This document shows, piece by piece, positions 8,635 through 63,494 of a stretch of DNA of 64,000 nucleotides (positions are counted from its first letter, which is position 1; every line of letters begins with the position of its first letter). A model generated the notes under the pieces. That model was given only the letters and a program-made list of their open reading frames with translations. It had not been told where the DNA came from and made no database searches. The stretch comes from Candidatus Nomurabacteria bacterium (GTDB lineage Bacteria; Patescibacteriota; Minisyncoccia; Phycocordibacterales; UBA10002). The stretch is from contig CALQZP010000001.1 in the NCBI GenBank assembly GCA_943349725.1, forward strand, positions 5,401-69,400, written 5' to 3'. Position numbers and translations under genes: made by a program.

Positions 8635-8690
8635 ACTCCTTGAAGTTGCAAAAAGAAAACCGCTCCATTCGCCGAGGCGAATTGGAGCGG

Positions 8691-8791
8691 TAATTTGTTG
8701 TGGTGAACGCCGCATCGTTCACCTGTTAACCCAAAGAACTATCGCGCAAAGCGGTGCGCGAGCCCGTTTTAGAAAACGGGCAAAATGTTAC
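8691..8791. repeat. about 100 nt direct repeat, copy 1 (palindrome gtgaacgccgcatcgttcac plus cccgttttagaaaacggg hairpin)
   Basis: Roughly 96% identical to 9528-9624; overlaps the stop codon of the 8788-9393 gene. Confidence 0.75.
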
Positions 8792-9393
8792 GGGTCGCAC
8801 TCCGCGAGGGAGTTGACCCTGGGAACCTCCGCGGGCGGATCGAGGAGAAGTTCCTCGACCGTCGGGAGTGAATCCTCCCCCCTCCGGAGTAGCCGTGGGC
8901 AGTCCACGACCACGAAGCCTCCGTTTACCAACGCCTCCTTGTTGAGGTGCCGGTTAACCGCGGCGAGCGGCCAAAGGGGGTGGATGGGCGACGGGGAGGG
9001 GTCCCACTCCCCGTGGAGCTCGTCCCAAAGCTCGCGGTACTCCCAGTCTTTCGCAGGGCGCTCGTGCGCCCGGCAGTGCTCGTTCCGCTCAAGCACATTC
9101 GCCCTCTTGGTGAGGGCCATTGCCGTTGGCACCCGGAGGAGCGGTGCCGGAATACACAACCTTTCGTCCCCACTTTCAAGGCGGAGGACAAAGAGGTCGT
9201 AGTGGGCCTGACTGGCGCACTCGCCGGCAGGGTCGTCCGTTTCGAGCTCGACGACGAGCCCCTTCGCCGCCTCTTCACCCCTGAACAGGGCGTCAAGGAG
9301 GAGGCAGAAGACCGTGTTTGGCAGGGTGTAATTTTCCCCTGCCCCGATGTCTTTCGCCCTGTCCGCGAGGGCGAAAAGTTTTTTGATATCCAT
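8788..9393 (-). CDS. hypothetical protein, GC-island paralog family (copy A2)
   Basis: Translation is about 70% identical, with conservative substitutions, to 33938-34564; start at MDIKKLFALADRAK is preceded by a GGAAAGGAAGT RBS. Confidence 0.65.
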   Translation of the reverse strand: MDIKKLFALADRAKDIGAGENYTLPNTVFCLLLDALFRGEEAAKGLVVELETDDPAGECASQAHYDLFVLRLESGDERLCIPAPLLRVPTAMALTKRANVLERNEHCRAHERPAKDWEYRELWDELHGEWDPSPSPIHPLWPLAAVNRHLNKEALVNGGFVVVDCPRLLRRGEDSLPTVEELLLDPPAEVPRVNSLAECDP

Positions 9394-9527
9394 ACTTCCT
9401 TTCCGGCGCAACATCGCGCCAAGAAGTTTTTTTCTCGATAGGCCGACGATTGGTTTCCACACACATGGAAATCCTCGGCCTAATGAAGTCCAGCACCAGA
9501 AAATCCTTCGATTTGTTGGTGCTGGAA

Positions 9528-9624
9528 ATTGTTGTGGTGAACGCCGAATCGCTCACCGTTAACCCAAAGAACTATCGCGCAAAGCGGTGCGCGAGCCCGT
9601 TTTAGAAAACGGGCAAAATGTTAC
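9528..9624. repeat. about 100 nt direct repeat, copy 2
   Basis: Near-identical to 8691-8791. Confidence 0.75.
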
Positions 9625-9657
9625 CCTTTCACCGCCCCGTAGGACGGCGGGAGGTGA

Positions 9658-10119
9658 TCAATACCCGACTGGGTACCACCACCTGGTGTGGCTCGGTCCC
9701 GGCTTCCACCTTGTCCCCGTGTCGGGGTGGGACTCGAATCCCTCCTGGTGGTTGGGGGTGTAAAACCCCTTCTCCACCTCCTCGTCCAAGTAGACGAGGT
9801 CGTTGAGGGTGGCCCGGCGGAGATGGGCCCAGTTATGCCTACACACGGAGCTCCCGCCCCAGTGGGAGACTCGTTGCGAGTCAACCCCCTCCCTGTACAC
9901 CCATGGGAGGGTGAACAGGGAATTCTCCCTGTTGTTTCTGGCCGAAACAACAACCCCCTGCTGATAGTGGGTTCCAAGAACCCACCCCTCCATATCGAGG
10001 GTGGCGTAGAAAACCCCGTCCTGCTGGTGCAGGTGACGGATGGACCCCTCCTTCGAGAAGTCCATAATTTCCGCCAACGAACCCGCCACCGCCACTCCCG
10101 TAATTTCAATTTTTTTCAT
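9658..10119 (-). CDS. hypothetical protein (GC-island gene A1)
   Basis: 153 aa ORF; AAGGAAG RBS before the ATG; about 65% GC; no recognised family. Confidence 0.5.
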   Translation of the reverse strand: MKKIEITGVAVAGSLAEIMDFSKEGSIRHLHQQDGVFYATLDMEGWVLGTHYQQGVVVSARNNRENSLFTLPWVYREGVDSQRVSHWGGSSVCRHNWAHLRRATLNDLVYLDEEVEKGFYTPNHQEGFESHPDTGTRWKPGPSHTRWWYPVGY

Positions 10120-10749
10120 TTTCTTCCTTCTTTTTCTCTTTTTTTTGTTGTTTGTTTCTTTGAACCCTGTTTAAAGTCGATGATTCAACGACTTTTGCCC
10201 AATGCTTACACAACATCGAGCTACCGAAACGACCGATTTCTCGGTCCTACCCAGAGCCTCCAGTTGGGCCAAGGGTGCTCTATCTCGGAATCGCAGTTAA
10301 TGAAATGCGACCCCTCTTGCTCTGCCGACACAGGTCGGCAAGGCGAAGAGGAGTAACATTTCGGAACGAATGACCGCTCCGCGTCTTCCTGTTTGAGGTT
10401 TTATCTTCACCTCAAACTTTCTTCTGCCTATTCGGTTGTCAAAGAATCAAACATACAGTATACCATGTACCATATATAAAGTCAATAGGTGGGGAGGGCT
10501 GAAAAAGCTATGATTAGAGCCATGAAAAACTCCGCCTTTATTGATGCGCAAACTGAAAAAGGAAGTCAGAGAGAAGATAACAGGACTTATGTACACCCCT
10601 CCCGCGCTAGACGCGTGTGTGCTCCCCTTGTTAGGGGAGAATTAAGACAAAGTTGCGTAAGTCCTAGATAAATTATATGAATAATCTTAATCATAAAATC
10701 GGCAGAGGTTGGAAACGAAAACGCACCGCGCAGACACGAGGACTGCGAG

Positions 10750-14954: not shown

Positions 14955-15104
14955 TTAATTGCGAGAAACTTCTCGACGAAACCGCACGTTATCGTTCGCG
15001 TTCTGCACGTCGTTGTAATTCACGTTCACCGTACCATTGCTGCGATTGAAGTTCACATACGGCACGTTCTCGTCGGGAAGGCGGTTCGTCCTGTCTTTCT
15101 CCAT
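14955..15104 (-). CDS. 49 aa orphan ORF homologous to the C-terminal tail of the 15418-16269 protein
   Basis: MEKDRTNRLPDENVPYVNFNRSNGTVNVNYNDVQNANDNVRFRREVSRN aligns to ...RLPDERVPCVHFNRGLGGVNVYCYDV...VRFRRAV of the upstream gene; the underlying roughly 110 nt DNA repeats are about 80% identical. Confidence 0.35.
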   Translation of the reverse strand: MEKDRTNRLPDENVPYVNFNRSNGTVNVNYNDVQNANDNVRFRREVSRN

Positions 15105-15417: not shown

Positions 15418-16269
15418 CTATTGCGGAAGTGAAGAAGTTTGAAGGTTTGAAGGAACAACTGCTCGACGAAACCGCACGTCCGCGAGCGCGAGCAGCACGT
15501 CATAGCAATACACGTTCACCCCACCAAGGCCGCGATTGAAGTGCACACACGGCACGCGCTCGTCGGGAAGGCGGGAGTCAGTACAGAAGGTTATAACGCC
15601 TTGGTCCGGATGAACGCTGTACTGTCTCCCATATGCTCGTCCAAAGAGTTGGCGCATAGGAACCGTAGTAGTTGTCCACGGGAGTTCGCGAACGGCAACC
15701 GTATGAAGATTGATCGGACTGTTCGTGCCCTTTCCAAGACATCCATCCGGAGCCTCCTGCTCATCCGCGACCCAAAAGCCAAAGGTACCGGTGTGTTTGT
15801 GCGTCATCTCCACATCGTCAAGGCTTTTATCACCGGAAAATCTCGAGACCTTGCCACCATAGGCTTTTTTATCGGACTGGAAGAAAAACTCCGCCGACTG
15901 CGCCACCTTTTCGTGCATTAGGCAGAAACGGGCTTTGTAGCCGAGGGGTTGGCGTGGGATAAGGAGTCCGGCGAAATCGGTTTTCATGCCGTATTCGTCG
16001 CTCCAGAACTTTTCTTCCCGCTGTGCGAGTTCGCTCGGAATGGTAATAAGCGACGAATCCGTCTTCGTCGATTCTTTGAGCGCAATGCGCTGGTCGCAAC
16101 CGAGATGCGCGACCGTCCGCACCAACTCTGACACCTGCGGATGATTTTCGTTCTTGAGCAAATAATACACTTCAGCATCCGACAGAACGCCGACACTATT
16201 CGCAAATCTGCCCGCGAGGGTCAATCTTTGCTGTACTTCTTCTGTCACCAACAAGGGGGCCTTAGTCAT
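15418..16269 (-). CDS. hypothetical protein (283 aa)
   Basis: Long ORF with an RBS-like purine run upstream; no family recognised. Confidence 0.5.
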   Translation of the reverse strand: MTKAPLLVTEEVQQRLTLAGRFANSVGVLSDAEVYYLLKNENHPQVSELVRTVAHLGCDQRIALKESTKTDSSLITIPSELAQREEKFWSDEYGMKTDFAGLLIPRQPLGYKARFCLMHEKVAQSAEFFFQSDKKAYGGKVSRFSGDKSLDDVEMTHKHTGTFGFWVADEQEAPDGCLGKGTNSPINLHTVAVRELPWTTTTVPMRQLFGRAYGRQYSVHPDQGVITFCTDSRLPDERVPCVHFNRGLGGVNVYCYDVLLALADVRFRRAVVPSNLQTSSLPQ

Positions 16270-28489: not shown

Positions 28490-28693
28490 TTACTTAAAAT
28501 CTTCATCTCGAAGATTCGCTTGCCGAAGGATTGATTTGAATGTGCCGATAGGCACCTCCTTTCTGTTTGCAGGAACAATCACCACATACCCGTCTTTTTC
28601 GAATTTAGCATGACTGCCTTTTTGAGAAATAAAAGTAAAACCGCATCGCAAGAGAACGCACTCAATATGACGTGAGGAGTAAAATTTAGGCAT
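28490..28693 (-). CDS. HicA-family mRNA interferase toxin
   Basis: 67 aa; RCGFTFISQKGSHAKF...IGTFKSILRQANL matches the HicA/YcfA fold. Confidence 0.7.
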   Translation of the reverse strand: MPKFYSSRHIECVLLRCGFTFISQKGSHAKFEKDGYVVIVPANRKEVPIGTFKSILRQANLRDEDFK

Positions 28694-28904
28694 ACCGCAA
28701 AGAAGTTGACACCAACTCCGGTCGAAGCACCTCGGTCACTTTTGGTTTCCGGGAGGATTCGAAGTAAAGTTCAAGAGCCTCGGCTAGATTTTTAAGAGCC
28801 AATTTTTTGCTTTCTCCAAAACTGGAAACATCCACGTTGAGGCATTGAGCTACGTAGTATTTCCCCTCTTTCCAAACTATATTTTTAAGATTTAAAGTTT
28901 TCAT
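28686..28904 (-). CDS. HicB-like antitoxin (N-terminal RNase H-like domain only)
   Basis: MKTLNLKNIVWKEGKYYVAQCLNVDVSSFGESKKLALKNLAEALELYF is the HicB_like motif; 8 nt overlap with hicA. Confidence 0.6.
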   Translation of the reverse strand: MKTLNLKNIVWKEGKYYVAQCLNVDVSSFGESKKLALKNLAEALELYFESSRKPKVTEVLRPELVSTSLRYA

Positions 28905-28915
28905 AACACTAGAAG

Positions 28916-29131
28916 TTATATCACATCCTTTAAGGAGCGCCCTCTTTTGAATCTTCCCTGCGCAAAATCCCTTTGGCTTCTCATGACAGACTGGTATAAC
29001 TGCTCTTCTTCCCAAGCTCTCACCGCGTCCCTGAAAAACTCGCTAACGGAAGCGTAATTGCCTTCTTTAACCGCTATGTCCACATTGCGCTTGAGTGAAA
29101 CCGGCATTGAAATGTTTAGTGTTGTTCTCAT
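28916..29131 (-). CDS. ribbon-helix-helix (CopG/ParD-like) DNA-binding protein
   Basis: 72 aa from the internal Met; MRTTLNISMPVSLKRNVDIAV is a beta-strand then helix-helix RHH pattern. Confidence 0.5.
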   Translation of the reverse strand: MRTTLNISMPVSLKRNVDIAVKEGNYASVSEFFRDAVRAWEEEQLYQSVMRSQRDFAQGRFKRGRSLKDVI

Positions 29132-29373: not shown

Positions 29374-29493
29374 CGAATAACAGCATAGATGTGGCTGCAT
29401 TAAACTAGGCGCTGGTTCTTATTCGGAAACATGGTGCGCCAACCAATGTCGTTCGAGCCGTCGGGCGAACCTGCCCCGCAGTCTTTCCTGCTG

Positions 29494-29700
29494 TCAGTCT
29501 CGGGAGAACTTCGCGAACAGGATAGCCACAAAGGCCAGCCCAAGCTCCGCCCACATAAGGAGCATCGCTTGGTTCCAGTACGCTCGGAACCCTTCCGAGA
29601 ACGGGGTCGGCTCCTGCCAGAGAATCACTGCTTTCATGGCCATTAAGCCAAGAGAGACAGCGACAATCGCGCGAGCCAACCCAAGGAACAACTTTCTCAT
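29494..29700 (-). CDS. small hypothetical membrane protein (island B)
   Basis: 68 aa, two TM helices, strong GGAGGTG RBS. Confidence 0.45.
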   Translation of the reverse strand: MRKLFLGLARAIVAVSLGLMAMKAVILWQEPTPFSEGFRAYWNQAMLLMWAELGLAFVAILFAKFSRD

Positions 29701-29895
29701 TTTTTCACCTCCTTCCGAGAATTTGAGGATTTAAACCCAATGAACCCGCGACAATCTTTCAGTCTGCGAGCTCAATAAAGTGGAGAATTTTATAACCCAC
29801 GCGAGATTCTTCCGAAACTCGCAACCTTGTCGAGCACCAATATCTTTTGGTGCTCGACCTGCGGACTATTAAGGGAGGTCCGCACTCCGTGTTTG

Positions 29896-30231
29896 TTATT
29901 TTTCCACCCAAGCTTTTGCGGCTTCGAGAGCCGCTTCGGCATCGGCGAAAAAACTCTGGTCGTTTTCGTTGCGCCAGAGTTTGAGAGACGACGTGGCACC
30001 TTGGAGCGCCACAATCATCTCGTTTTCACTGACCCGCTCTCTGGTCCAGTGAGCGGGGGCAGGGTGGGGCAGTCTTTCGAACAGTCCATCTCCGCCCTTA
30101 ACCCCCGTGATCTGGAATATCCGCTCTCCCACGGACCATTCCAGTGCTTTCCGTTCTCCCTCCACCCAGACACGGAGGAAGGCGAGGTCGTGTTTTGTCA
30201 TACACGACCTCAATTGGCCCAACTCCATTGC
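29896..30231 (-). CDS. hypothetical protein (island B)
   Basis: 111 aa from MELGQL; overlaps the upstream gene by about 20 nt (operon-like). Confidence 0.4.
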   Translation of the reverse strand, partial: AMELGQLRSCMTKHDLAFLRVWVEGERKALEWSVGERIFQITGVKGGDGLFERLPHPAPAHWTRERVSENEMIVALQGATSSLKLWRNENDQSFFADAEAALEAAKAWVEK

Positions 30232-30446
30232 CCGACCGGAACCTCCATCTCCACGAGGAGACGTCCGGCCTGGCATCGGATGACAAGAGTTGCCTCGTCA
30301 TCCTTGAGCCAAATTTCTTCGTCCGGAATTTGCTCCGGACGAATCCCAAGTTGCCCAGTCGCCTGAGCAACTTTTCCGGCCATCGCCTGCCACGCGGCGA
30401 TGGCATCCGTGGTTAGAACCACGGACCCCATGTTTATTTTTTTCAC
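30210..30446 (-). CDS. hypothetical protein (island B)
   Basis: 78 aa, GTG start with AAAGGAGG RBS 5 nt upstream. Confidence 0.45.
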   Translation of the reverse strand: MKKINMGSVVLTTDAIAAWQAMAGKVAQATGQLGIRPEQIPDEEIWLKDDEATLVIRCQAGRLLVEMEVPVGQWSWAN

Positions 30447-30522
30447 GGGGTCCTCCTTTCACTTAAATTTTCTTCCTACTCTCCCACAAAACCATTGTCT
30501 TGCGAGAGTGATAAGAAGGTGA

Positions 30523-30543
30523 ACGCCGTATCGTTCACCAAAA
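30523..30543. repeat. palindrome gtgaacgccgtatcgttcac, third copy
   Basis: Same palindrome as in the 8691 and 9528 repeats. Confidence 0.6.
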
Positions 30544-30600
30544 CCCTAAACCTTTTCTTTTTGAATGTTGCACCGAATACGGTCGGCGTTTTATTCTTTA

Positions 30601-31275
30601 CTAGGAATTACAAAATTCCTGGTAGGCCGTTTTTGCCTCCGATTCAAACATGGTGATGGAGCCGAGACACCCATCGTAGGTGCCGCAGATTTCTACCCAT
30701 GCCGGAATCGGCAGTGACACTACCTTCTCCGGTGTTTCAATCTCCCGCACCTGCGGAAACTGCGCCGCTTTTAGGCGGAACATTTCCTTCATCTGCTGAG
30801 CCGAAACCCAAAAAATACTGGGTCTGAAGCTTACACTGACCCGACTTGATCCGACTATCGGCTCAATGAGGATATCGAACCTGATAGAATCCGGCCACAC
30901 TAGGGTCTCTGGGTTTTTATAGCCCGGACCGGACGCGCGGCCATAGAACCCCACGGACGCCAGCTCCTCGGGAGTGAGGGGAACTGCACTTCTCGCCGAG
31001 AGCTCCCTTCGCAAGGCGGCTTCCCACTCTTCGTACTTTCTGCCACTCCCTCCGTCAGGAACCGGCCCATTAATCTCAACGAGCAACTTGCTCGCTGAGT
31101 CGTCCAGCCCCGAAGCGACTGCTTCTTCGGCTAGATGGGTGCATTCGCGCCCCATGTGATACGCGGCAAAGAGCGCCGCGTGAATTGTTGATTTAATCCC
31201 ACTTTTCTTGGCAGCAGGTGAGCCGGTTTTGTTTGTGTTGTTCATAGCAACCTGCTTCCGATAATTCGGAAACAT
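30601..31275 (-). CDS. hypothetical protein (island B)
   Basis: 224 aa ORF; the likely true start is MNNTNK at 31245, which has a GGAAGCAGG RBS. Confidence 0.45.
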   Translation of the reverse strand: MFPNYRKQVAMNNTNKTGSPAAKKSGIKSTIHAALFAAYHMGRECTHLAEEAVASGLDDSASKLLVEINGPVPDGGSGRKYEEWEAALRRELSARSAVPLTPEELASVGFYGRASGPGYKNPETLVWPDSIRFDILIEPIVGSSRVSVSFRPSIFWVSAQQMKEMFRLKAAQFPQVREIETPEKVVSLPIPAWVEICGTYDGCLGSITMFESEAKTAYQEFCNS

Positions 31276-31496
31276 ATTGCTATGAACAACGACTCTATGA
31301 GCCGACCAACACTATTGCCCGGCTCAATAAAGTCCAGCACAACCGACCAAGGAAGTGCTGGGTAAATGTTGGAGAATTAACCCATTCTTTCTGAACAATT
31401 CTCCTTTTGTTCATAAAGTCACAAGAGCCCGCAATACCGCTCTTGCATAACTTCTACCAATCACGCATTGCGACGCGTGTCCGATTTTAGTCGGGA

Positions 31497-32474
31497 TTAT
31501 TTGAGATGGCGGGCCACCACCTCGACCACCTGCTCGACCGTCAGGGTCGAACTGACTCCTTGCGGAGAACCCCCAATAGTCGGCGACCCGCCCCAGCCGG
31601 GTTCAAGCCCCGCCAACTCGGCGAGTGCTGCTTTGATGTCCGCGAACCTGGCCGCCTCAAACGCGCACACCGTAAACTTACGGTGTGGTTCGCCCACACC
31701 GAGCTTGAAACTCGGATTGAGGGCGACCACCACAGGGGCCAGGGAGTACCCGACCATCGTGGCGGCACGATGAGTGGACTCCACGACAGCAATTTTGTCG
31801 TCTGCCGTGGTCAAGTGTTTGATGGCACCCGACTCCAGCGCGCCGACCATCTCGTCGCGCTCCTTCTCCACCTGCTCGCGGTAGCGAGCAGGTTCCTCGC
31901 CGGTCAGAAGCCACTTTTCCATCGTGGCGACCCGCTCGGCGAACGGGACCTTGAAGTCCGCCACCGCCGCGTTGATTGCGGCGAGCGGACGAGAGCTTTC
32001 GGCCGAGGCGCTCTCCTCCGGCCACGGATTGTCCGCGGTCGGAAGCGGTCGAGGCCCGGGATAACCACCCCAAGCAAATTTATCGGCCTTGGCGACCTTT
32101 TTCACCTGCTCCTGGCAAAAAAAAGTTGGCATATCACAACACCCACCACTGCTCTCCAACAGATGGTGACGAATCCCAATGACTGACATTGCCCCGACGG
32201 AGTCCAGATCGGGTCGCACGGTGGCCAGCGTTGTCCATTCCGCCGGCATTTCAATGCCGATCACGACCTCGATGGCCGACCTTCCAGCGTTTCCGCCGGT
32301 GTGTTGGGGGTCAATGTTCCCCAGTGAGCACCGTGCCGCCAATGCGGGCACGGTGACCTCGATCCCGAGAACCGGCCCCGATGCAAAGATCGCGTCGTTG
32401 GCCGCTTGAGCGGATGGGAGGTTTCGGGGATCCAGCACCGCGAATTTATAATTCTTCATAACAATTTCACTCAT
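31497..32474 (-). CDS. hypothetical protein, 325 aa (island B)
   Basis: Long GC-rich ORF with conserved-looking Gly-rich segments; no family recognised. Confidence 0.45.
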   Translation of the reverse strand: MSEIVMKNYKFAVLDPRNLPSAQAANDAIFASGPVLGIEVTVPALAARCSLGNIDPQHTGGNAGRSAIEVVIGIEMPAEWTTLATVRPDLDSVGAMSVIGIRHHLLESSGGCCDMPTFFCQEQVKKVAKADKFAWGGYPGPRPLPTADNPWPEESASAESSRPLAAINAAVADFKVPFAERVATMEKWLLTGEEPARYREQVEKERDEMVGALESGAIKHLTTADDKIAVVESTHRAATMVGYSLAPVVVALNPSFKLGVGEPHRKFTVCAFEAARFADIKAALAELAGLEPGWGGSPTIGGSPQGVSSTLTVEQVVEVVARHLK

Positions 32475-32849
32475 CTCAAAATAAAAACAAAGCTGTATCA
32501 GTTTTTTCGATACGGTCTTTGTCTTTCATACTGCGCGGGTTTCTATGTCGCGCAAATATGTCATCTCGAATTTTTCGACAAGTGAGCGGGGGTCTAGACT
32601 GTCCCCATTCACTGGTCGAAGTAAGTGAAATTACTATGAATACCTGTCTACAGACCGGCAAAATTTGTCGGCCTGATAAACAGGAGAAGTTTTTAACCGA
32701 AAACTTCTCCACATAACCCTTGCGATTATTTTTCTCGGGAAATCGTCCTTCCCAACGCACTGCATGCGAGGCTCACGCTTTAAAAAGGTGACAACAATTA
32801 GTGCTTCTGTAGCGAAAGTTGCACTATCTTTCGGATGTCTTTCCATCAG

Positions 32850-33185
32850 TCAGTCGAAAGGCTCGAGTCTTCTCAAGACTTCCAACATCCCCTTTACCGG
32901 TTCGGGGAGGACTTGGTTCTTCACCTCAAACCCAGGTCTCGGACTCTTAACAAGTCCGTTCTGGATTTTTATGAAAGTGACATTGTCCACTTCCATAGTC
33001 CTCTCCCCGCTCTGTAGGATTATAACCACTTCATTTCCATGAAGTATCTTATAATCCCCAGAGACGGTGTTTTGGATCAGTAGTCCAAAACCTCCGGCCA
33101 GCCTAAGCTGACTAGGGGTGAAAACTTTTCCTCCCTCCCGGCATGGGATGAGAGTAAAGTTTTCTTTAGATAAGAAAAATACCAT
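32850..33185 (-). CDS. hypothetical protein (island B)
   Basis: 111 aa ORF, beta-rich composition. Confidence 0.35.
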   Translation of the reverse strand: MVFFLSKENFTLIPCREGGKVFTPSQLRLAGGFGLLIQNTVSGDYKILHGNEVVIILQSGERTMEVDNVTFIKIQNGLVKSPRPGFEVKNQVLPEPVKGMLEVLRRLEPFD

Positions 33186-33326
33186 TTATGGTATCCTCCT
33201 CCCGTTTTTTTCACTGAAACGGCAAGCTTTCGACCTAACTTTCAAGCCTCGCCAAACAGCTCACACTTTGTAACAGGCAGTGAGCGCCTTTGTCCTTCCT
33301 ATTCCCACGGTGCGGGAATAGGAACA

Positions 33327-33740
33327 TTACGAGATGAGGACCCCCTCAATCTCGCTCCTGGCCACCGCAAAAGCGTCGGCGTCACAAACCCCGGTCTCCT
33401 CCGGGATTTGCCGTAGGAATTCCTCGTACCTCGAAAAATTCTTTTGGTCGAGACTTTTTGCCTCGACCAACCACAACACGCCTACGCGTGTGTGGATTTT
33501 AACCGCGGCCATAAGGCCGCGGCCGCTCATCGACTTCCACCTGAGCATTCTCAGGTTTCGTTCGGTGAACTGCATCCATGAAAAACCAGTTGAACGGTTT
33601 TCATGGTTTTCGGGCTCCGAACGCCCATTCCACAGCCTATCGGCTCCTTGGTGTTCGGTCCCAACAAGAACTTTGTCGGTGGGGGCATCGGCCCCCAGTT
33701 GATTGCACGCCATGCGACTCAAATCGCATAGCGACGCCAT
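33327..33740 (-). CDS. hypothetical protein (island B)
   Basis: 137 aa from MASLCDL; carries the same conserved 5' leader as 8788-9393 and 33938-34564. Confidence 0.45.
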   Translation of the reverse strand: MASLCDLSRMACNQLGADAPTDKVLVGTEHQGADRLWNGRSEPENHENRSTGFSWMQFTERNLRMLRWKSMSGRGLMAAVKIHTRVGVLWLVEAKSLDQKNFSRYEEFLRQIPEETGVCDADAFAVARSEIEGVLIS

Positions 33741-33937
33741 TTTATAATTTTCACACTTCCTTTCTGGCGTTACACGCGCCAAAAGTTTTCTTGATGGGCC
33801 AACGACTTTTCCGCACACACGGAGAATTGCAAGCCCAATAAAGGGGAGGAACGAAAACCCTTTCGTTCCTCCTTTGAAACCTTAACCTTTTCGCACCTTT
33901 AAAAGTGCGAGCGCGTTTTAGAAAACGCGCAAAATGT

Positions 33938-34564
33938 TTACACTCTCACCGCTTCTGGGTGGAGTGCCCAGTACTCGGCCGTACTGGAAAGTCCCAGCTC
34001 CGCCGGAGGCGGGTTGACGAGAAGCTCCTCGACCGTCGGGAGCAGCTGCCCCTTCCCCTTTAGTGACCGCGGGATCTCCGCGACCACAAACCCTCCCCGA
34101 ACCAGCGCCTCTTTGTTGAGGTGCCGATTGACCGCAGCGAGCGGCCAATAGGGGTGGATTGGGGAGGGAGAAGGCTCCCACTCCCCGTGGAGCTCATCCC
34201 AGAGCTCCGATAGCTCCCACTCCCCAGGAGCCTCGTGCTCCCGAGAGTGTTCCACTCGGCCGACTCGATTGGCCCGCTTCGTCATCGCCATGGCCGTCTC
34301 CACCCGGAGGAGCGGTGCCGGTATGCATAGCTTTTCGTTTCCGCCCGGCAAGCGGAGAACGAAGAGGTCGTAGTACGCCTGGTCGGCGAAATGACCCTCG
34401 TCGTCCTCAGTTTCGAGGTCGACGACGAGTCCCTGCGCCTCCTCGTTGCCCCTGAAAAGGGCTTCGAGAAGAACGCAGAAAACTGCGTTGGGGAGGGAAT
34501 AATCTTCCCCTCCCCCAATTGTCTTCGCCCTGTCTGCAAGGGCGAAAAGTTTTTTAATGTCCAT
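33938..34564 (-). CDS. hypothetical protein, GC-island paralog family (copy B2)
   Basis: Paralog of 8788-9393 (DIKKLFALADRAK...LCIPAPLLRV...ELWDELHGEW...PLAAVNRHLNKEALV). Confidence 0.65.
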   Translation of the reverse strand: MDIKKLFALADRAKTIGGGEDYSLPNAVFCVLLEALFRGNEEAQGLVVDLETEDDEGHFADQAYYDLFVLRLPGGNEKLCIPAPLLRVETAMAMTKRANRVGRVEHSREHEAPGEWELSELWDELHGEWEPSPSPIHPYWPLAAVNRHLNKEALVRGGFVVAEIPRSLKGKGQLLPTVEELLVNPPPAELGLSSTAEYWALHPEAVRV

Positions 34565-34745
34565 ACTTCCTTTCCGGCGCGACACTGCGCCAAACAGCTT
34601 TCTCTATAGGCCGACGATTGATTCCGCACACACGGAGAATTGCAAGCCCAATAAAGGGGAGAAGTTTTTAACCAAAAACTTCTCCCATAACCCCATGCAA
34701 CAATTTATCCATCTAATGGAAAGGAAGTTGCTCTTCCTTTGCGCT

Positions 34746-35552
34746 TCAGCTTTCCACCGAAGCGGCGACCTCTTCCCGCGTAGCGGGAGGAGTGTAGTTT
34801 TTCTTGGCGGCCTCAATGGCCGCCAAGATTGCATCCACACCTACCGGATTTCTAAATCCGGTGTAGGTGAGGAGCAACCTCGCCTGAATGGCGGGGGAGG
34901 TTCTGACCTCCCGCCCACCAACTGAGGAGAGAACCTCCTCCATGCTGTCCTCTGACAGCCCCTCGGCTGTCAGCTGTTCCCGAGTGACCGTGAGGTCCTC
35001 GGGAAGATTTTCTACCGCCTCCTTGTGGCGGCAGGGAGGGCACTTGCCCTCCAACTTGATGACAGGAAGCGCGTGCGCGCTCCCTTCCGTCCCTTCGTCC
35101 TCCCCCACCCGGAGAAGGACGAACTCCGACAGCGTGGACCCGCAGTAGGTGCGGGTCCAGCAAAAGCCTGCCTTAGGAGTAGGCAGGCTTTGGGGTTCCC
35201 AGTAGCCGTTTAGGACGGCTACTGGATTTAGAATCGCGTGGCCACCCACGCGACCCGACCAGTTCCAGAGTTGGAACTCGATCGGGTTCACCGGCCGCCC
35301 TTCGGCGGTGGTAAACCCCGTCGCCACCGACCCAACCCCACCCATGGTGAGGAAGAGAGTGGCGATTTCACACGCCGTGGCCAAGGCCTCGGCGTTTTCG
35401 ACTTTCTCCACCCGGAACTTCCGGGTGGATTTCCCGCAACAGGAGCATGTGCGCTCCATGATGCGGGCGTTTACGACGTCCCCGTCTGCGGGGACGTCAC
35501 CGGTCCAGAGTTTGCCGGGGGAACCGATCCCCCGGCGAATTTTAACAATCAT
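34746..35552 (-). CDS. hypothetical protein with Cys clusters (CSCCGKS, CPPCRH), island B
   Basis: 268 aa ORF; possible zinc-binding motifs. Confidence 0.4.
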   Translation of the reverse strand: MIVKIRRGIGSPGKLWTGDVPADGDVVNARIMERTCSCCGKSTRKFRVEKVENAEALATACEIATLFLTMGGVGSVATGFTTAEGRPVNPIEFQLWNWSGRVGGHAILNPVAVLNGYWEPQSLPTPKAGFCWTRTYCGSTLSEFVLLRVGEDEGTEGSAHALPVIKLEGKCPPCRHKEAVENLPEDLTVTREQLTAEGLSEDSMEEVLSSVGGREVRTSPAIQARLLLTYTGFRNPVGVDAILAAIEAAKKNYTPPATREEVAASVES

Positions 35553-36136
35553 TTTTCCTTTCCGGTGTATCTCTACACCTTTTTTGTTTTTTTATTTCTT
35601 CGAACCCATTCGGATCCAAAAAAACGGAATCGTCTTTGCGATCCCTCTTACCCCACCAACCTTAAGTCTTTCGATCTATCAATAAGTGGGGCGAAGAGGA
35701 ATAACATTGCGGAACGATTTGTTCCACGTTTTCCTAATTCGCTATTCTGTTTTCAAAGTTCATCCTTACTCTCTCCTTTCACTTCCGCGCAACTCTCTCT
35801 TCCTTGCCCGAACAAGTCTTCTTGTTTTAGGGTAATTCAGATTGCGTGGCTTCCTGGTGTAAGGACATTTTGGAATACAAAGCGGGTTAGACCTTATATT
35901 CCATCGATGTCCTTGCGAGCCTTCTCGCGAACAACGTGCGGTGAGTTTGCCTGTAGGCATAGCTCCTTTATTTGGGTAGGTTTCGAAGCCACACAAATAT
36001 AGAGCACTCACCATTCGAAACGAGACTTTCATAAGCTTGCTTCTCTCCCCACTCTCTCTTCTTTCTACGCTTAGTCCCTTGCGGGAAGGTCGTAGTACCC
36101 TCGAGCACTAACTTGTGCGTGCGCTATAATTGCAAT

Positions 36137-36391
36137 ATGTATTATGTATACTTTTTGCAAAGTGGTGTTGGTAAAACCTATATCGGCTATACCAACGACC
36201 TGAAGCGCAGACTCGCACAACATAACTCCTCGCAAAGTACCTACACTCGAAATCAAAAGTGGCGACTTGTGTACTACGAAGCTTACGCTTCTAAAGCTGA
36301 TGCCGTGTGTCGAGAAAAATGTCTCAAGCAACGCGGTCAAGCTGTACGCCAACTTAAAGATCGTGTATCTGAATCTTTACGCACAAGTTAG
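36137..36391 (+). CDS. GIY-YIG nuclease family protein
   Basis: MYYVYFLQSGVGKTYIGYTNDLKRRLAQHN is a canonical GIY-YIG (URI) motif. Confidence 0.75.
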   Translation: MYYVYFLQSGVGKTYIGYTNDLKRRLAQHNSSQSTYTRNQKWRLVYYEAYASKADAVCREKCLKQRGQAVRQLKDRVSESLRTS

Positions 36392-36648: not shown

Positions 36649-37461
36649 ATGGAAAATATACAATATGAAAAGTTTTTAGGGGAGCTTGGACTCAACAAAG
36701 AGCAGTCACTCGTCTACGAATCGCTCTTAAAAAACGGGCTTATGCCCGCTAGAGTTGTAGCCCAAAAATCAGGGGTCAAGCGAAGTCTTGCTTATAAAAT
36801 ATTAGAGCAGCTTATTTCGCTTGGTTTGGTGGAAAAAAGAGACAATATCGGGAAAATTACCCTGTTCTTCCCTGCCCACCCGGGCAAGCTTCGAGAATTC
36901 CTGCAAAAGCGCGAGGAAGCCATAAAAACCGCCGAGGCTTCGCTCGGCGGGATTATGGGGAAAATGGTGTCGGACTTTAATTTGCTTTCAGGAAAACCCA
37001 ACGTGCAATTCTACGAAGGGCCGGAGGGGATGAAAAAGGTGTTGGAAGATTCTCTTTCGGCGGAAAGTGAAATCTATTCATATTCTGATGTTATTTCGGT
37101 ACAACAATATATCCCCACTCTTAACACCGAATACATGGCCAAGCGGACCAAATTTAATGTAAAGAAAAAAATACTTTTTTTTGATTCTAAAGAAGCACGC
37201 GCTCTTCTTCCTAAAATATACAAACCGGATATCACGGAATATAAATTCATTCCGTTCAAAACGGAACCGCCTCATACTGTCATGCAAATGTATGACAAAA
37301 AAGTATCGTACATCACCCTTGCCAAAGAACAAATGATCGGCGTCATCATTGAGGACGCGAATATTTATTCACTTCATAAATATCTCTTTGAACACCAGTG
37401 GAGTACTAGTCCCGAACTCCCAATAGGAGCGGTTTCTGCGGTCGAGAAAACTCTTCAATAG
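36649..37461 (+). CDS. TrmB-family transcriptional regulator
   Basis: 270 aa; N-terminal winged HTH (LNKEQSLVYESLLKNG...ILEQLISLGLV) and TrmB-like C-terminal domain. Confidence 0.6.
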   Translation: MENIQYEKFLGELGLNKEQSLVYESLLKNGLMPARVVAQKSGVKRSLAYKILEQLISLGLVEKRDNIGKITLFFPAHPGKLREFLQKREEAIKTAEASLGGIMGKMVSDFNLLSGKPNVQFYEGPEGMKKVLEDSLSAESEIYSYSDVISVQQYIPTLNTEYMAKRTKFNVKKKILFFDSKEARALLPKIYKPDITEYKFIPFKTEPPHTVMQMYDKKVSYITLAKEQMIGVIIEDANIYSLHKYLFEHQWSTSPELPIGAVSAVEKTLQ

Positions 37462-52308: not shown

Positions 52309-52402
52309 CAGATACCAATCAACGAATGAACACCAATCTACAAATACCTACAAATGAGAGATAGGAGGATTAGTAGGTATTCGTTATATTGGTACAGATT
52401 AG

Positions 52403-52912
52403 TTGATTGGTAAAAGTATGAACTCAACCGAAATCAAAAAAATCATAGAAGACTTGCTTCGCCACATGCAGATATCCGTGGAGAGTATTTCGGTATCCGA
52501 GTGTGATGGGCGAGAGTGTTTTTCGGTACAAACTCCCGACTCCAGGCTTCTCATCGGGGAAGGCGGAGTCAATCTGCTTGCCTTCAATCACCTCGTTAAG
52601 AAGATGGCCTCACCAAAAGGCTCCACAGGCGAGACCCCCACAGTCGAGGAACGAGGGAAAACCTTTTTCGTTGATGTAAACGGCTTCCAAGAAGCCGCGC
52701 TTCAGAATATCAAAAATGTAGCCAAGATAATGGGCGACCGCGCTCGGTCATTCAAGACCAGTGTAGAGCTTGATCCGATGTCTTCGTATGAGCGAATGGT
52801 TATTCACGCCTTTTTCCAAGAGGCGAAGGACCTCAAGACCGAGTCGGTAGGTGAGGGAGACAAACGAAGGGTGGTGATACGGTATGTTGAAACTGGAACA
52901 AGTGACTTGTAA
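52403..52912 (+). CDS. jag: Jag/KhpB RNA-binding protein (KH plus R3H)
   Basis: 169 aa; R3H-like C-terminus RMVIHAFFQEAKDLKTESVGEGDKRRVVI; synteny with yidC. Confidence 0.75.
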   Translation: MIGKSMNSTEIKKIIEDLLRHMQISVESISVSECDGRECFSVQTPDSRLLIGEGGVNLLAFNHLVKKMASPKGSTGETPTVEERGKTFFVDVNGFQEAALQNIKNVAKIMGDRARSFKTSVELDPMSSYERMVIHAFFQEAKDLKTESVGEGDKRRVVIRYVETGTSDL

Positions 52913-62200: not shown

Positions 62201-63016
62201 AAGAATGCTCTTGCCCGAACCTGATTTAGCTAGGGTGATTGAGTTGTAGTTCTCCAAACTGAAGCGGTCAAAGAGAACAAGGGAAGCGTTGTGACGGTTG
62301 ATGCCGTAGAGAATGCCCTTGTTGGAAGTAAGGTCAAACGAGAGAAACGGAAACACGCTTGAAAGTGGAGAAGAGTTGAGCTTCGTGTGCACCATAAGCT
62401 CGTCGTTGCCAAGCGGAGAGGTGGAACGAAATCCTTGCTCCTGCTGAAAGAGAGCCGGTTTCATAATGACGAGTTTGCTTTCAAGAAGCGAGCGTATTTC
62501 ACTCTCGGTCTTATCAAGCTCGTTCTCATCTCCCGCATAGATGGTGAGATAAATACCGACATCAAAAAGCTTTTCCTGCGCCTGCAGAAGGTCATCACGA
62601 AGTTTCTCAAGGTCTTGGTAGGCTGTCTCAAGCATCGGGTCGCGTACGAGCCCCTTCTTCTCACGGTCCGCCATTTGACTCTGGACCTCCGCTACTTTTT
62701 TCTGGAAGGTGCGCAGTACCTTGGCGGTATCCACCGGGTGAATAAAGATACTGATGTCAAAAACCTTATCAAGATTGATAATGGGCGCGAACCAGCCTTC
62801 GGTGAGGTAACGGGGGTAGGAAATGACAAAGAATGTTCGCGTCATCTTCCCGCTCACGTTGAGCGACTTCGCCTCTATCTTGAGAGCCGCGGGGGCGATG
62901 ACATCTTGGAGTTCAAGCGTGCCAGATTGGTAAATCTGCTCGGGGAGAAATTCCGCGATATCCTTGTCCGCTTTTTTCTTGTTGAAGAAATTAAAAAACC
63001 CCATAATGTTTACCAA
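59213..63016 (-). CDS. VirB4/TraC-family conjugation/T4SS ATPase interrupted by an intein
   Basis: 1267 aa; Walker A AKSGSGK|S is split, and rejoining gives GSGKSYMTKLE; Walker B MVIDEAWWMM lies in the C-extein. Confidence 0.75.
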   Translation of the reverse strand: MVNIMGFFNFFNKKKADKDIAEFLPEQIYQSGTLELQDVIAPAALKIEAKSLNVSGKMTRTFFVISYPRYLTEGWFAPIINLDKVFDISIFIHPVDTAKVLRTFQKKVAEVQSQMADREKKGLVRDPMLETAYQDLEKLRDDLLQAQEKLFDVGIYLTIYAGDENELDKTESEIRSLLESKLVIMKPALFQQEQGFRSTSPLGNDELMVHTKLNSSPLSSVFPFLSFDLTSNKGILYGINRHNASLVLFDRFSLENYNSITLAKSGSGKSILGHEPVLMRKNDRVLLRPIGDIVEEAILERGVMQIDHELEGVIDPGLEVWSFDKEMKGTWSRVTVAARKDAPQELYRFKTRSGRVVETTGDHNMLVLRKGEVVATKSADIGLGEYVPLPREVKNGTTSPLTLNLLKHMADSRVYVTGVAPLMVEYRRLLRTEVIDSRFDRYLYKYAAGRRVPISYFRKLLACLSLEITDARLAQCFIISASGTGKLPAFYTVTPALAKILGYLVSEGTIGKKVAIISNIDPEVIQDVCTALTTLEVQHFLTPKSVVISDIIFVKFLAIIGLQEKSATKRVPSIIFESPRNAQTAFLSAYFEGDGGVDGPTITAVSKSRMLTSDLCYLLYNFGVISRLAVRKKLIPGKSKEDYSLLTISGQKNLSSFREHINFISERKKGMLLTLKRAENTNVDIIPGLPPLFQEIDALLGKAMRGRKNWSPLKRGVFNPSPRQLKLVIADIRMVIRDIESKRALFRVLTGLPTIADIIKVAKQSKAVNALLWKELGSSFATMKKGKMPGMANAVTALSCMGIDVPRLPELKEAISEGFEFLGEPMKYHNPSLRTALHIHPEANTSYEMLTQASSFISARYHSLCNNIPRVRELLVRLEKLATADLAWDEIVAIEPFTNKTERYVYDLTVDNEVFLAGYGGMFVHNSYMTKLEILRSLMFGTDVIVIDPEREYEYLAEATGGKYFNISLNSEHHINPFELAPPREDESPADVLRSNIINLVGLFRILLGGLSAEEDAMIDRAIAETYALKDITPDSDFSKIEPPLLSDFELVLAGIQGAESLVQRLSKYTHGTWAGFINQPSNVDINSNFIVFSLRDMEDELKPAAMYIVMHFIWNSIRKELKKRLMVIDEAWWMMKSEDTASFLLGLAKRGRKYYLGLSTITQDVDDFLKSPYGLPILTNSSMQMLLKQSPTVVDKLQTIFSLTDEEKYLLLESDVGEGLFFVGLKHVAIKIIASYTEDQIITSDPSQLLSIKAAKDELKAAEGKE
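60239..62209 (-). mobile_element. intein (about 657 aa) with double-LAGLIDADG homing endonuclease inside the VirB4 P-loop
   Basis: Ser1 directly after the GSGK; block B TTGDHNMLVL; LAGLIDADG motifs ILGYLVSEGT and LSAYFEGDGGV; C-terminal ...FVHN followed by Ser+1. Confidence 0.7.
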
Positions 63017-63045
63017 TCAACTAATCTGTACCAATCTACTAATAC

Positions 63046-63480
63046 CTACGAATCTGACTCTCCTGGCTTGCGTGCCCCGTAGGCAACGCGGATAACACGG
63101 TGAGATCGAACATAAGTTCCTCCGAAATTAACAATGATACCCAATTGAATACCGGTTGCTTGCAAGTATCGCTGTATCTGATCATAATCCCCACTCGCCA
63201 CAAAAGGTTTCGCTTTCAATTCTAAGATGATCTTATCTTCAATTAAGAAGTCAAGAATGTTGTTCGTATCTCCAATTCTAAGCTCTCGCTTGTAGGTGAT
63301 GCCGTTTTCTTTGAGTTTTTGCTCCAGTAAGTCCGCGTATTGTTTTTCTCGAGAAAACTTTCCGATTTCATTATGAACAGTGTAACAGAGACCAACCATA
63401 TCGAAAGAAAGGTCGGGATAGAGAAGTCCTAGTCCTTTTTTCGCGTTCTTATTTGTAGGTATTTGCAGATTGGTGTTCAT
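63046..63480 (-). CDS. GxxExxY-family protein (PD-(D/E)XK-like)
   Basis: 144 aa; HNEIGKFSREKQYADLLEQKL, ILELKA, GIIVNFG motifs. Confidence 0.65.
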   Translation of the reverse strand: MNTNLQIPTNKNAKKGLGLLYPDLSFDMVGLCYTVHNEIGKFSREKQYADLLEQKLKENGITYKRELRIGDTNNILDFLIEDKIILELKAKPFVASGDYDQIQRYLQATGIQLGIIVNFGGTYVRSHRVIRVAYGARKPGESDS

Positions 63481-63494
63481 TCGTAGATTGGTAT

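Follow-up and report, generated by a model that had tools for sequence, protein, structure and literature searches.

What are the two islands of short genes, rich in guanine and cytosine (GC), that interrupt the chromosome of a Candidatus Nomurabacteria bacterium, and how long have they been there? We addressed this question in a 64-kb stretch of DNA (the window), which sits within the 89.9-kb metagenomic contig ENA ERZ27280297 k141_995313 of a bacterium of the Patescibacteria, or candidate phyla radiation (CPR). The backbone of the window is an ordinary chromosome, with Pfam families of dnaA, dnaN, yidC, polA, ruvB, ruvC, a Mur ligase and a penicillin-binding protein. Island A spans positions 8790–10120 and island B positions 29430–35560, and every gene of both is on the minus strand, as the original prediction, made by reading the sequence, had stated. 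That prediction judged the islands to be consistent with a horizontally acquired, possibly modular system (defence, conflict or cassette shuffling) for which no known family could be named. We favour, at about even probability, a different history, in which both islands are old, variable accessory gene arrays headed by a leader RNA and probably engaged in nucleotide-signal or defence-type conflict. Loci fetched from other genomes and metagenomes for comparison are given L-numbers below.

The element that links the two islands is a structured leader RNA, which was overlooked in the first reading of the sequence. The window holds exactly two copies, one per island. Copy 1 stands at the head of island B (35596–35750, minus strand; covariance-model match 112.8 bits, E 1e-22) and copy 2 heads island A (10283–10405, minus strand; 76.1 bits, E 2e-14). 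The architecture consists of a stem P1, the sequence AAUGUUAUU, a stem P2 (CCUCUU/AAGAGG) closed around a variable P3, and then P4; in order, the sequence runs AGGAUAACG, P1, CAAUGUUAYUCCUCUUC, P3, AAGAGGGRUCGCA, P4. Searched for in other genomes, the motif recurs in over 70 loci of metagenomic origin. A single pattern scan of metagenomes yielded 77 loci, and the covariance model then gave 84 leader matches in 80 sources (the window and 79 loci).

The structure is borne out by covariation. Across 69 distinct leader sequences, 95.7% of paired cells are compatible with pairing, versus 81% in shuffles and 46–57% in slid controls. Changes on both sides of a pair occupy 204 cells where 79 would be expected; the covariation score stands at 0.379 versus 0.131, a value reached in 0 of 500 shuffles. 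P1 takes a wide variety of stem sequences from one locus to another, and the P4 hairpin folds in most other loci, again with differing stem sequences. Because of its G-U pairs, the leader is an RNA of the gene strand. In copy 1, P4 is a terminator-like hairpin (GGGAUCG..CGAUUCC followed by U7; 35626–35645, minus strand) recovered in a terminator scan. Copy 2 lies about 50 nucleotides (nt) downstream of a sigma-70-like promoter (10457–10485, minus strand; TTGACT, a 17-nt spacing and TG-TATACT), which scored 10 of 12 matches in a promoter scan and has an extended -10 element.

The leader resembles riboswitch and attenuator leaders in its multi-stem structure, its strong covariation, its position 0–400 nt upstream of open reading frames (ORFs), and the overlap, seen in copy 1, between the 5' arm of a terminator-like hairpin and the 3' strand of P2. 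It is unlike them in belonging to no Rfam family, in lacking a uniform expression platform and in standing before heterogeneous genes that share no single pathway. Indeed, the genes behind the leader are rich in GC at third codon positions (GC3) and very diverse, most having no relative in other motif-bearing loci. Against Rfam 15, leader and block 1 (see below) gave no match at gathering score, nor was there any at E up to 5 within 35596–36112. The leader model likewise found no match on phage contigs or in L254, the locus on a 905-kb contig. A scan of viral contigs with a 15-nt leader core returned 120 chance matches, which were discarded. Weaker second copies of the leader (32–35 bits) occur further along the same array at L219:703–802 and L196:9955–10101. 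In the literature we found no CPR riboswitch or RNA motif, and no account of Patescibacteria and TrmB, that matches this locus; a paper on horizontal gene transfer in Patescibacteria (PMC12455944) does not describe it.

A second structured-RNA candidate, block 1 (35840–36112, minus strand), lies upstream of the leader, between it and the trmB gene, and is 82–84% identical in nucleotide sequence to L007 and L002. RNAalifold, applied to four sequences only, predicts 73 pairs, 17 of them with compensatory changes, and invariant G-U pairs on the minus strand. Block 1 was found only in close relatives, namely the window, L007/L202, L002 and L009.

The leader also coincides with a step in base composition. 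In 23 of 24 loci with the motif, the 1.5 kb downstream is richer in GC than the 1.5 kb upstream (+9.9 points, p 2e-5). The 60–68% GC originally ascribed to both islands applies to individual genes only: the window has 48.4% GC (47.4% outside both islands), island A 59.8% and island B as a whole 54.7%. Five genes (8788–9393, 9658–10119, 31497–32474, 33938–34564 and 34746–35552) have 59–64% GC with GC3 of 0.70–0.79, versus GC3 of 0.50–0.58 in backbone genes, and 600-bp stretches reach 60% GC or more in 11 of 56 cases within island B and in none of the 560 taken outside the islands. The profile of composition and codon usage along the window therefore upholds the predicted deviation for these five genes and for amino-acid usage, and not for parts of island B that are backbone-like, namely its intergenic stretches and the genes 32850–33185 and 30601–31245. 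In the islands GC is raised at all codon positions, codons ending in C and in G are both enriched, and glycine, alanine, arginine and proline together account for 31% of residues in island proteins versus 24%. Translational selection was considered as the cause and rejected, as NNG codons increase along with NNC codons and three further backbone genes chosen for comparison (identity not confirmed) show no bias, their codon usage being backbone-like and not island-like.

This GC-richness extends well beyond the window. The most widely conserved island gene, which encodes a 325-residue protein with a predicted DHH/DHHA1 fold (DHH-like; 31497–32474, minus strand; GC3 0.70), has relatives that average 60% GC versus 46% in their distant flanks (37 loci). 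In about 30 of the 37 the difference exceeds 10 points, its maximum is 27 points, and the copy in L010 has a GC3 of 0.91. The island genes of L254 again stand about 10 GC points over their flanks. GC-richness is characteristic of the gene family and is maintained. A single recent transfer cannot explain it, because synonymous sites between orthologs are near saturation (proportion of synonymous differences, pS, 0.63–0.69). A persistent force would be needed to hold the shift, candidates being GC-biased gene conversion in a recombination hotspot, selection on mRNAs, and ongoing exchange with a GC-rich gene pool. A paper on GC-biased gene conversion at recombination hotspots reportedly bears on the first of these. 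Genomic islands are more usually AT-richer than the host genome.

The age of island B is most readily appreciated from its surroundings. It fills a slot between ruvB and a trmB-family regulator gene (36649–37461, plus strand; PF01978), which is divergent from the island and a conserved anchor of the locus. Homologous genes fill the trmB-to-ruvB slot in L002, L004, L007, L009 and L254. The DHH-like gene is found there in L002, L004 and L007, the families of the 268-residue and 208-residue island proteins both in L007 and L009, the 101-residue family in L002, L007 and L009, and the 73-residue family in L007. A family of 561–570 residues is an extra presence in L004 and L007, and in L009 a nucleoside diphosphate kinase gene (NDK; 9424–9870) stands among the island genes, adding one more gene of nucleotide metabolism to the array. 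Gene order and content differ between sister slots, units having been gained, lost and reshuffled, and a search of other genomes for co-occurrence of the island genes thus returned related but reshuffled sets in the same slot. In at least 17 of 37 GTDB-representative loci, the DHH-like gene comes after a large GNAT-like gene and a divergent trmB. Across 16 loci the identities of TrmB and of the DHH-like protein correlate (rho 0.56, p 4e-11), which points to vertical inheritance of the two genes for the most part, with a few outliers.

Rates of substitution place the island genes under purifying selection. The ratio of nonsynonymous to synonymous substitution (dN/dS) is 0.14–0.34 for island genes and 0.06–0.07 for trmB and ruvB; the island genes are real, and less constrained than their flanking genes. 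The pS between orthologs of 0.63–0.69 compares with 0.72–0.90 for the flanking trmB and ruvB. Below saturation are the 268-residue gene in the window versus L007 (0.48, the trmB value being 0.80) and the two paralogs described below (0.54), a sign that some exchange or conversion may have taken place later.

These data bear on a stricter form of the original prediction, namely that the islands were recently acquired from a GC-rich donor, in the form of two copies or fragments, and that their composition has not yet drifted to that of the host. Such an origin would account for the step in GC3, at all codon positions and in glycine, alanine, arginine and proline usage, as well as for the low pS of the 268-residue gene and for some pairs of loci in which DHH-like identity is far over TrmB identity. 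It is largely refuted by synteny, the slot being filled by homologous genes in five related genomes, and the same GC-richness recurs in about 30 lineages, even with synonymous sites near saturation. Moreover, the intergenic modules are conserved across genomes, and signs of mobility are wanting. The tRNA genes of the window are at 1610 and 16909 only, none being in or beside island B, and no integrase or recombinase occurs in the island or among the best 25 of the 66 Pfam families matched in the window. No flanking tRNA and, within those families, no integrase was found; flanking direct repeats were not specifically searched for. Among the marks of a genomic island, compositional deviation is present, and absence from the same site in relatives is not. 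We therefore regard recent acquisition as very unlikely. The vertical signal of TrmB and DHH-like proteins and the homologs in the same slot argue instead for long-standing arrays.

The islands are assembled from non-coding modules that are used more than once, and here the original prediction was largely accurate. The paralogous DNA stretches 8826–9469 and 34000–34636 are 75.7% identical and their proteins 70%, as had been claimed for 8788–9393 and 33938–34564. The trailers 8682–8791 and 9516–9624 are 93.6% identical, and the shared leaders 33740–33848 and 34550–34661 are 85% identical around a 40-nt core that is 100% conserved, in agreement with the conserved leader and trailer that had been described. 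The hairpin GGAGAAGTTTTYGGTTAAAAACTTCTCC is indeed used twice, at 32683–32710 and 34657–34686, which is 6–8 nt away from the coordinates first given. A hairpin with a T-rich tract had been proposed to follow almost every gene; terminator-like sites are in excess (22 versus 10.2 expected from shuffled sequence), and an exception is the pair of genes 30210–30431 and 29896–30201, whose 8-nt gap contains no hairpin. Every unit carries a ribosome-binding site (RBS) and a leader of its own. The island hairpins are perfect palindromes of 28–30 nt whose sequences, as read, are unrelated to each other, and they may be terminators or 3'-end stabilizers of individual messages.

A further sequence, CTTTATTG, occurs five times in the window, four of them on the minus strand within island B and each of these after a hairpin. 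Island A has no exact copy and carries the variant CTTCATTAGG. Read as a candidate -35 or -10 element, CTTTATTG showed no convincing sigma-70 spacing. The modular layout holds both here and in sister genomes, where the same leader and trailer modules adjoin unrelated genes, and the intergenic DNA of island B is 72–88% identical across genomes, often above the identity of the proteins. Thus the module 34565–34745 (minus strand), comprising the hairpin 34657–34686, CTTTATTG and then the leader shared with 33740–33848, is partly conserved in L002, L007 and L009 before other genes. The module 32475–32849 (minus strand) joins the reused hairpin 32683–32710 to a 5' leader of the DHH-like gene that is both structured and conserved; it is 78% identical over 202 nt to the stretch upstream of the L002 DHH-like gene, and part of it stands before a different gene in L009. 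In 33714–33937 (minus strand), a trailer with three hairpins is joined to the shared leader, as read from the sequence and its repeats, and the first of these hairpins covaries with those of the island A trailers (GCGCG..CGCGC versus GCCCG..CGGGC). Island A itself has a trailer copy with three hairpins at 8682–8791 (minus strand) and, at 9394–9657 (minus strand), the other trailer copy (9516–9624, with a terminator-like hairpin) together with the leader of paralog A (8788–9393).

This layout raises the possibility that the units are integron-like cassettes, with the hairpins as single-strand recombination sites, the leader as the insertion site and the genes drawn from a shared GC-rich pool. 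Integron arrays, and clusters of attC sites lacking integron-integrases (CALINs), are likewise composed of co-oriented short genes, each with an inverted repeat, of variable content and of composition deviating from the host. In the islands the single orientation, the one hairpin per gene, the identical non-coding modules beside unrelated genes and their reuse before different genes elsewhere, and the sharp GC step from the leader onward would all follow. However, attC sites span 57–141 nt with R'', L'', L' and R' boxes, and integrons carry the tyrosine recombinase IntI. The island hairpins, of 28–30 nt and differing in sequence, are too short and on reading have none of this attC architecture; the window has no intI, and a recombinase is absent from the island and from the best 25 of the 66 window Pfam families. 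The head element, with its G-U pairs, behaves as an RNA and not as an attI site, and every unit is equipped with its own leader and RBS. On this evidence an integron-like origin is highly improbable, and we retain the reading of leader-headed accessory arrays.

Two adjacent genes of island B form a recurrent unit. The 268-residue gene (34746–35552, minus strand; GC3 0.72) yields a confident AlphaFold2 (AF2) model that has no match among solved structures. The 208-residue gene (paralog B; 33938–34564, minus strand) is 70% identical to 8788–9393 and belongs to a family with an N-terminal domain of about 150 residues and 216 cluster representatives, for which there was no Pfam match and, by profile search, no significant match to PDB sequences. 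The two genes are side by side in the window, L007 and L009. In L254 a 467-residue protein (P0165; L254:7001–8404), encoded in the same trmB/GIY-YIG slot of the 905-kb contig, is a fusion, with the 268-residue family at its N terminus and the 208-residue family at residues 325–460. Adjacency in three loci and fusion in a fourth therefore indicate one functional module.

The remaining genes are less widely shared. In island A, the 201-residue gene (paralog A; 8788–9393, minus strand; GC3 0.79) differs from paralog B with dS 0.94 and dN/dS 0.24, and the 153-residue ORF (9658–10119, minus strand; GC3 0.77) has no homolog among the loci fetched. The same is true in island B of the 111-residue ORF (32850–33185, minus strand; GC near backbone) and of the 214-residue ORF (30601–31245, minus strand), which is followed by a hairpin at 30518–30539. 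The 128-residue ORF (33327–33713, minus strand), a called gene, is likewise without a homolog in the fetched loci, and it has no family match and no relative in motif-bearing loci. The 73-residue and 101-residue genes, 8 nt apart (29896–30431, minus strand), form a conserved sub-module with dN/dS of about 0.33; an adjacent homologous pair is found in L007, and the 101-residue family is also found in L002 and L009 at about 50% identity. A putative 68-residue hydrophobic ORF (29494–29700, minus strand; GC3 0.71), a called gene, is the last of island B. The island proteins tested had no match in Pfam, PHROGs, PADLOC or NCBIfam. Ten of them gave nothing significant against PADLOC-DB 2.0 (best E 0.033); no defence-system model fits, in line with the earlier statement that no known family can be named. 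The accompanying claim that the islands lack recognizable domains holds in sequence searches and fails for the DHH-like protein once structure is considered.

We determined what the DHH-like protein resembles by structure prediction, which had been proposed for this product. The AF2 model has a predicted local distance difference test score of 90.6, and in Foldseek its top five PDB matches are all DHH/DHHA1 proteins (E 1.6e-4 to 9e-4, probability 0.99–1.0), among them PAP phosphatase (8a8k), RecJ2 (7yik and 7ykv) and the pGpG phosphodiesterase PggH (7d62). Template-modelling scores of these matches are only 0.32–0.42, probably owing to a different orientation of the two domains. At the level of sequence the relationship is hidden. 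Pfam at E up to 1 (DHH PF01368 and DHHA1 PF02272) gave no match for the protein or for nine divergent relatives, a profile search of PDB sequences with the family found nothing, and hhalign of the family profile with one RecJ sequence returned a probability of 0.35. The family is nonetheless large, with 1034 homologs detected, the best 120 at 56–69% identity; the few organisms named among them are Woesebacteria, Parcubacteria or Paceibacterota. Its motif set is NxDPQH, RxDxD, D131 and GWGGSPTIxGSPQG, and D55, H58, R87, D89, D91, D131 and GWGG..TIxGSPQG are invariant across CPR, proteobacterial CRISPR-linked and phage members. From the modelled fold, we infer a metal-dependent phosphoesterase predicted to act on short oligonucleotides or nucleotide-derived signals.

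The genomic company of the family outside CPR is suggestive of conflict. In a Defluviicoccus metagenome-assembled genome (MAG; L041, 845–8872), a DHH-like gene is part of a tight co-directional operon that encodes a Card1-like endonuclease, the DHH-like protein, a Cas10/Cmr2-like protein, a RAMP protein, the product of an unknown gene and a second RAMP protein. In a Caulobacteraceae MAG (L049, 4428–12242), it adjoins genes for TIGR03986-family and other type III RAMP proteins. These two homologs from Alphaproteobacteria are 34–43% identical to the 325-residue protein, no corA is seen beside them, and judged by their gene context they may represent an undescribed type III accessory phosphodiesterase. 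In L027 (6578–14013, on a contig labelled Nesterenkonia flava JCM 14814, a provisional assignment), the DHH-like gene adjoins an N6/N4 methylase gene, with a McrBC-like pair of AAA_5 and DUF2357/PD-(D/E)XK genes beside it. Among six IMG/VR contigs (L248–L253), four carry DHH-like genes (41–43% identical) and two carry genes of the 268-residue family (36–37%), surrounded by small ORFs of Erf-like, O-like, DnaD-like, HNH and endolysin PHROG families. With relatives in type III CRISPR operons, beside methylase and McrBC-like genes and on phage contigs, the defence or conflict flavour originally ascribed to the islands is plausible.

The phage contigs also bear on whether the islands are the early-gene region of a decayed prophage or another integrated mobile element. 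The many small same-strand ORFs without known homologs would suit such an origin, as would the company that DHH-like and 268-residue-family genes keep on IMG/VR contigs (Erf, O-like, DnaD-like and endolysin genes) and the toxin–antitoxin-like ORFs that, by eye, lie beside island B. Yet no island protein has a significant PHROG match, structural, integrase and replication genes are absent from the island (with no integrase among the best 25 of the 66 window Pfam families either), chromosomal synteny is conserved across divergent genomes, and the phage homologs are only 36–43% identical. We consider a prophage remnant the least probable of the alternatives, which in falling weight are housekeeping (below), recent horizontal transfer, integron-like cassettes and prophage remnant.

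Comparison with characterized systems narrows what the DHH-like protein may be. NrN, a DHH-family phosphodiesterase of CorA-type type III CRISPR systems, degrades S-adenosylmethionine-AMP (SAM-AMP); in the enzyme of B. fragilis D85, H86 and H87 are essential, and PggH is its closest structural match (PMC10600005). The 325-residue protein shares with NrN, PggH, GdpP, NrnA and PAP phosphatase the two-domain DHH/DHHA1-like fold, PggH and PAP phosphatase being among its own top matches, and, as with NrN, relatives of it (in L041 and L049) are encoded within effector operons of type III CRISPR systems. Unlike NrN, it lacks the DHH tripeptide and has no Pfam, NCBIfam or PADLOC match; the window has neither cas nor corA, no such gene being found around the 325-residue gene, and most members of the family are in CPR beside trmB. 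The family is not NrN, because both the motif and the sequence match fail, although it may work like NrN. A different parallel is offered by the ring nucleases (Crn2/AcrIII-1), of which the same family reportedly occurs in type III CRISPR loci and in phage genomes. The 325-residue family, too, is found in type III CRISPR loci and on phage contigs, but its fold is unrelated and most of its members are in CPR chromosomes without CRISPR.

The arrays as a whole can be compared with defence islands and variable genomic hotspots. In both, a fixed slot between conserved core genes (here trmB to ruvB) undergoes rapid turnover; relatives of the 325-residue protein are in defence loci of other phyla, and toxin–antitoxin-like genes are adjacent by eye. 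The arrays differ in having no recognizable defence gene, in genes that are GC-richer than the genome and in non-coding modules conserved across genomes. Hotspots of variable accessory genes with a cis-regulatory leader are, as a kind, already known. In the libraries searched (Rfam, Pfam, PHROGs, PADLOC, NCBIfam and PDB), no match was found for the leader RNA, for the DHH-like family or for the 268/208 module.

If the reading of old, variable accessory arrays is correct, these genes would have been kept over long times in the CPR lineage while their content changed. The leader may gate or stabilize transcription into the array; since the 5' arm of P4 overlaps the 3' strand of P2 in copy 1, alternative pairing could switch read-through. 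The hairpins would then terminate individual messages or stabilize their 3' ends, and the DHH-like protein is predicted to cleave short oligonucleotides or signals derived from nucleotides. Taken as a unit, the array may serve functions of a conflict type, whether defence, counter-defence or host interaction, and its GC shift may be maintained by gene conversion in a recombination hotspot or by selection on mRNA. A bolder version, which we rate as quite unlikely, is that the leader, as a riboswitch or a protein-binding RNA, senses a nucleotide-derived signal and gates a compositionally insulated, CPR-specific cassette array. Its GC-rich, hairpin-capped messages would outlast AU-directed RNases (toxins or collateral defence RNases) that silence the remaining transcriptome, and their products would be effectors of counter-defence or host interaction, among them a DHH-like phosphodiesterase that degrades signals and is shared with type III CRISPR operons and phages.

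Several observations weigh against our favoured reading. P2 has no independent covariation support because it was fixed by the search pattern. A U-tract follows P4 in only a few loci, most other copies having none, and there is therefore no uniform expression platform. The model detected no leader in any of 33 more distant DHH-like loci searched; hence leader and DHH-like gene are not obligately linked. Canonical members of the DHH/DHHA1 superfamily carry the motifs DxD, D, DHH and D, with GGGH in the DHHA1 domain; the alignment of the 325-residue family lacks both the DHH tripeptide and GGGH, and its CRISPR association amounts to two loci, L041 and L049. The islands of the window have no cas gene and no known defence gene (PADLOC-DB 2.0). 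Finally, in other CPR loci the DHH-like gene is often beside those for CCA-adding enzyme, NusA and a DEAH helicase, neighbours with which a housekeeping nanoRNase fits equally well.

This last point introduces the strongest alternative, ordinary housekeeping of the lineage. In that case the DHH-like protein would be the CPR nanoRNase or pAp phosphatase, the other genes would be lineage housekeeping genes as well, the leader an ordinary autoregulatory 5' untranslated region and the GC-richness a product of selection for high expression or mRNA stability. The neighbours just named are in its favour, together with the more than 1000 CPR homologs of the 325-residue protein (the best 120 at 56–69%), inheritance that is largely vertical with trmB, nearest folds that are PAP phosphatase and PggH, and a backbone of ordinary chromosome. 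The islands are thus made of ordinary conserved lineage genes in part: this is so for the 325-residue protein and not for the other genes, which are highly variable and mostly without a relative in motif-bearing loci. dN/dS is three to five times that of the flanking genes (0.24–0.34 versus 0.06–0.07), G-ending and C-ending codons are shifted alike, the three comparison backbone genes (identity not confirmed) are backbone-like, and CRISPR operons, restriction loci and phages all harbour homologs. Housekeeping is, on balance, unlikely, and the variable accessory array remains the reading that we prefer.

Other features of the window were recorded beside these. A small GIY-YIG-type ORF (36113–36391, plus strand) lies between trmB and island B; L254 has a GIY-YIG gene in the same position of the slot, and L007 has a 23S_rRNA_IVP gene there instead. 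Immediately downstream of island B, three small ORFs (28490–29107, minus strand) are by eye candidates for HicA-like, HicB-like and ribbon-helix-helix antitoxin-like proteins, one of these candidate toxin–antitoxin ORFs bearing a weak DUF7387 mark. Elsewhere, the window has a 118-nt direct repeat (14967–15084 and 15457–15574, 81% identical), two inverted repeat pairs of 47–48 nt at 91–94% identity (52312–52359 with 63447–63494, and 52368–52414 with 63009–63054), and two ORFs that match LAGLIDADG_3.

These findings have consequences beyond the window. The leader RNA marks where variable gene arrays start in over 70 metagenomic loci, and further arrays of this type could be located with it. The persistent local shift in GC, specific to gene families and setting in from an RNA element, offers a natural test case for GC-biased gene conversion versus mRNA selection in bacteria. 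The 268/208 module is a conserved gene pair, one member of which, the 268-residue protein, has no structural relatives. The 325-residue family is shared by CPR chromosomes, type III CRISPR operons and phages, and is therefore a candidate for a new enzyme that degrades nucleotide signals or nanoRNA. CPR genomes are full of unannotated genes, and few known defence systems have been detected in them. If the conflict reading is true, the arrays would represent a repertoire of defence or counter-defence in this phylum.

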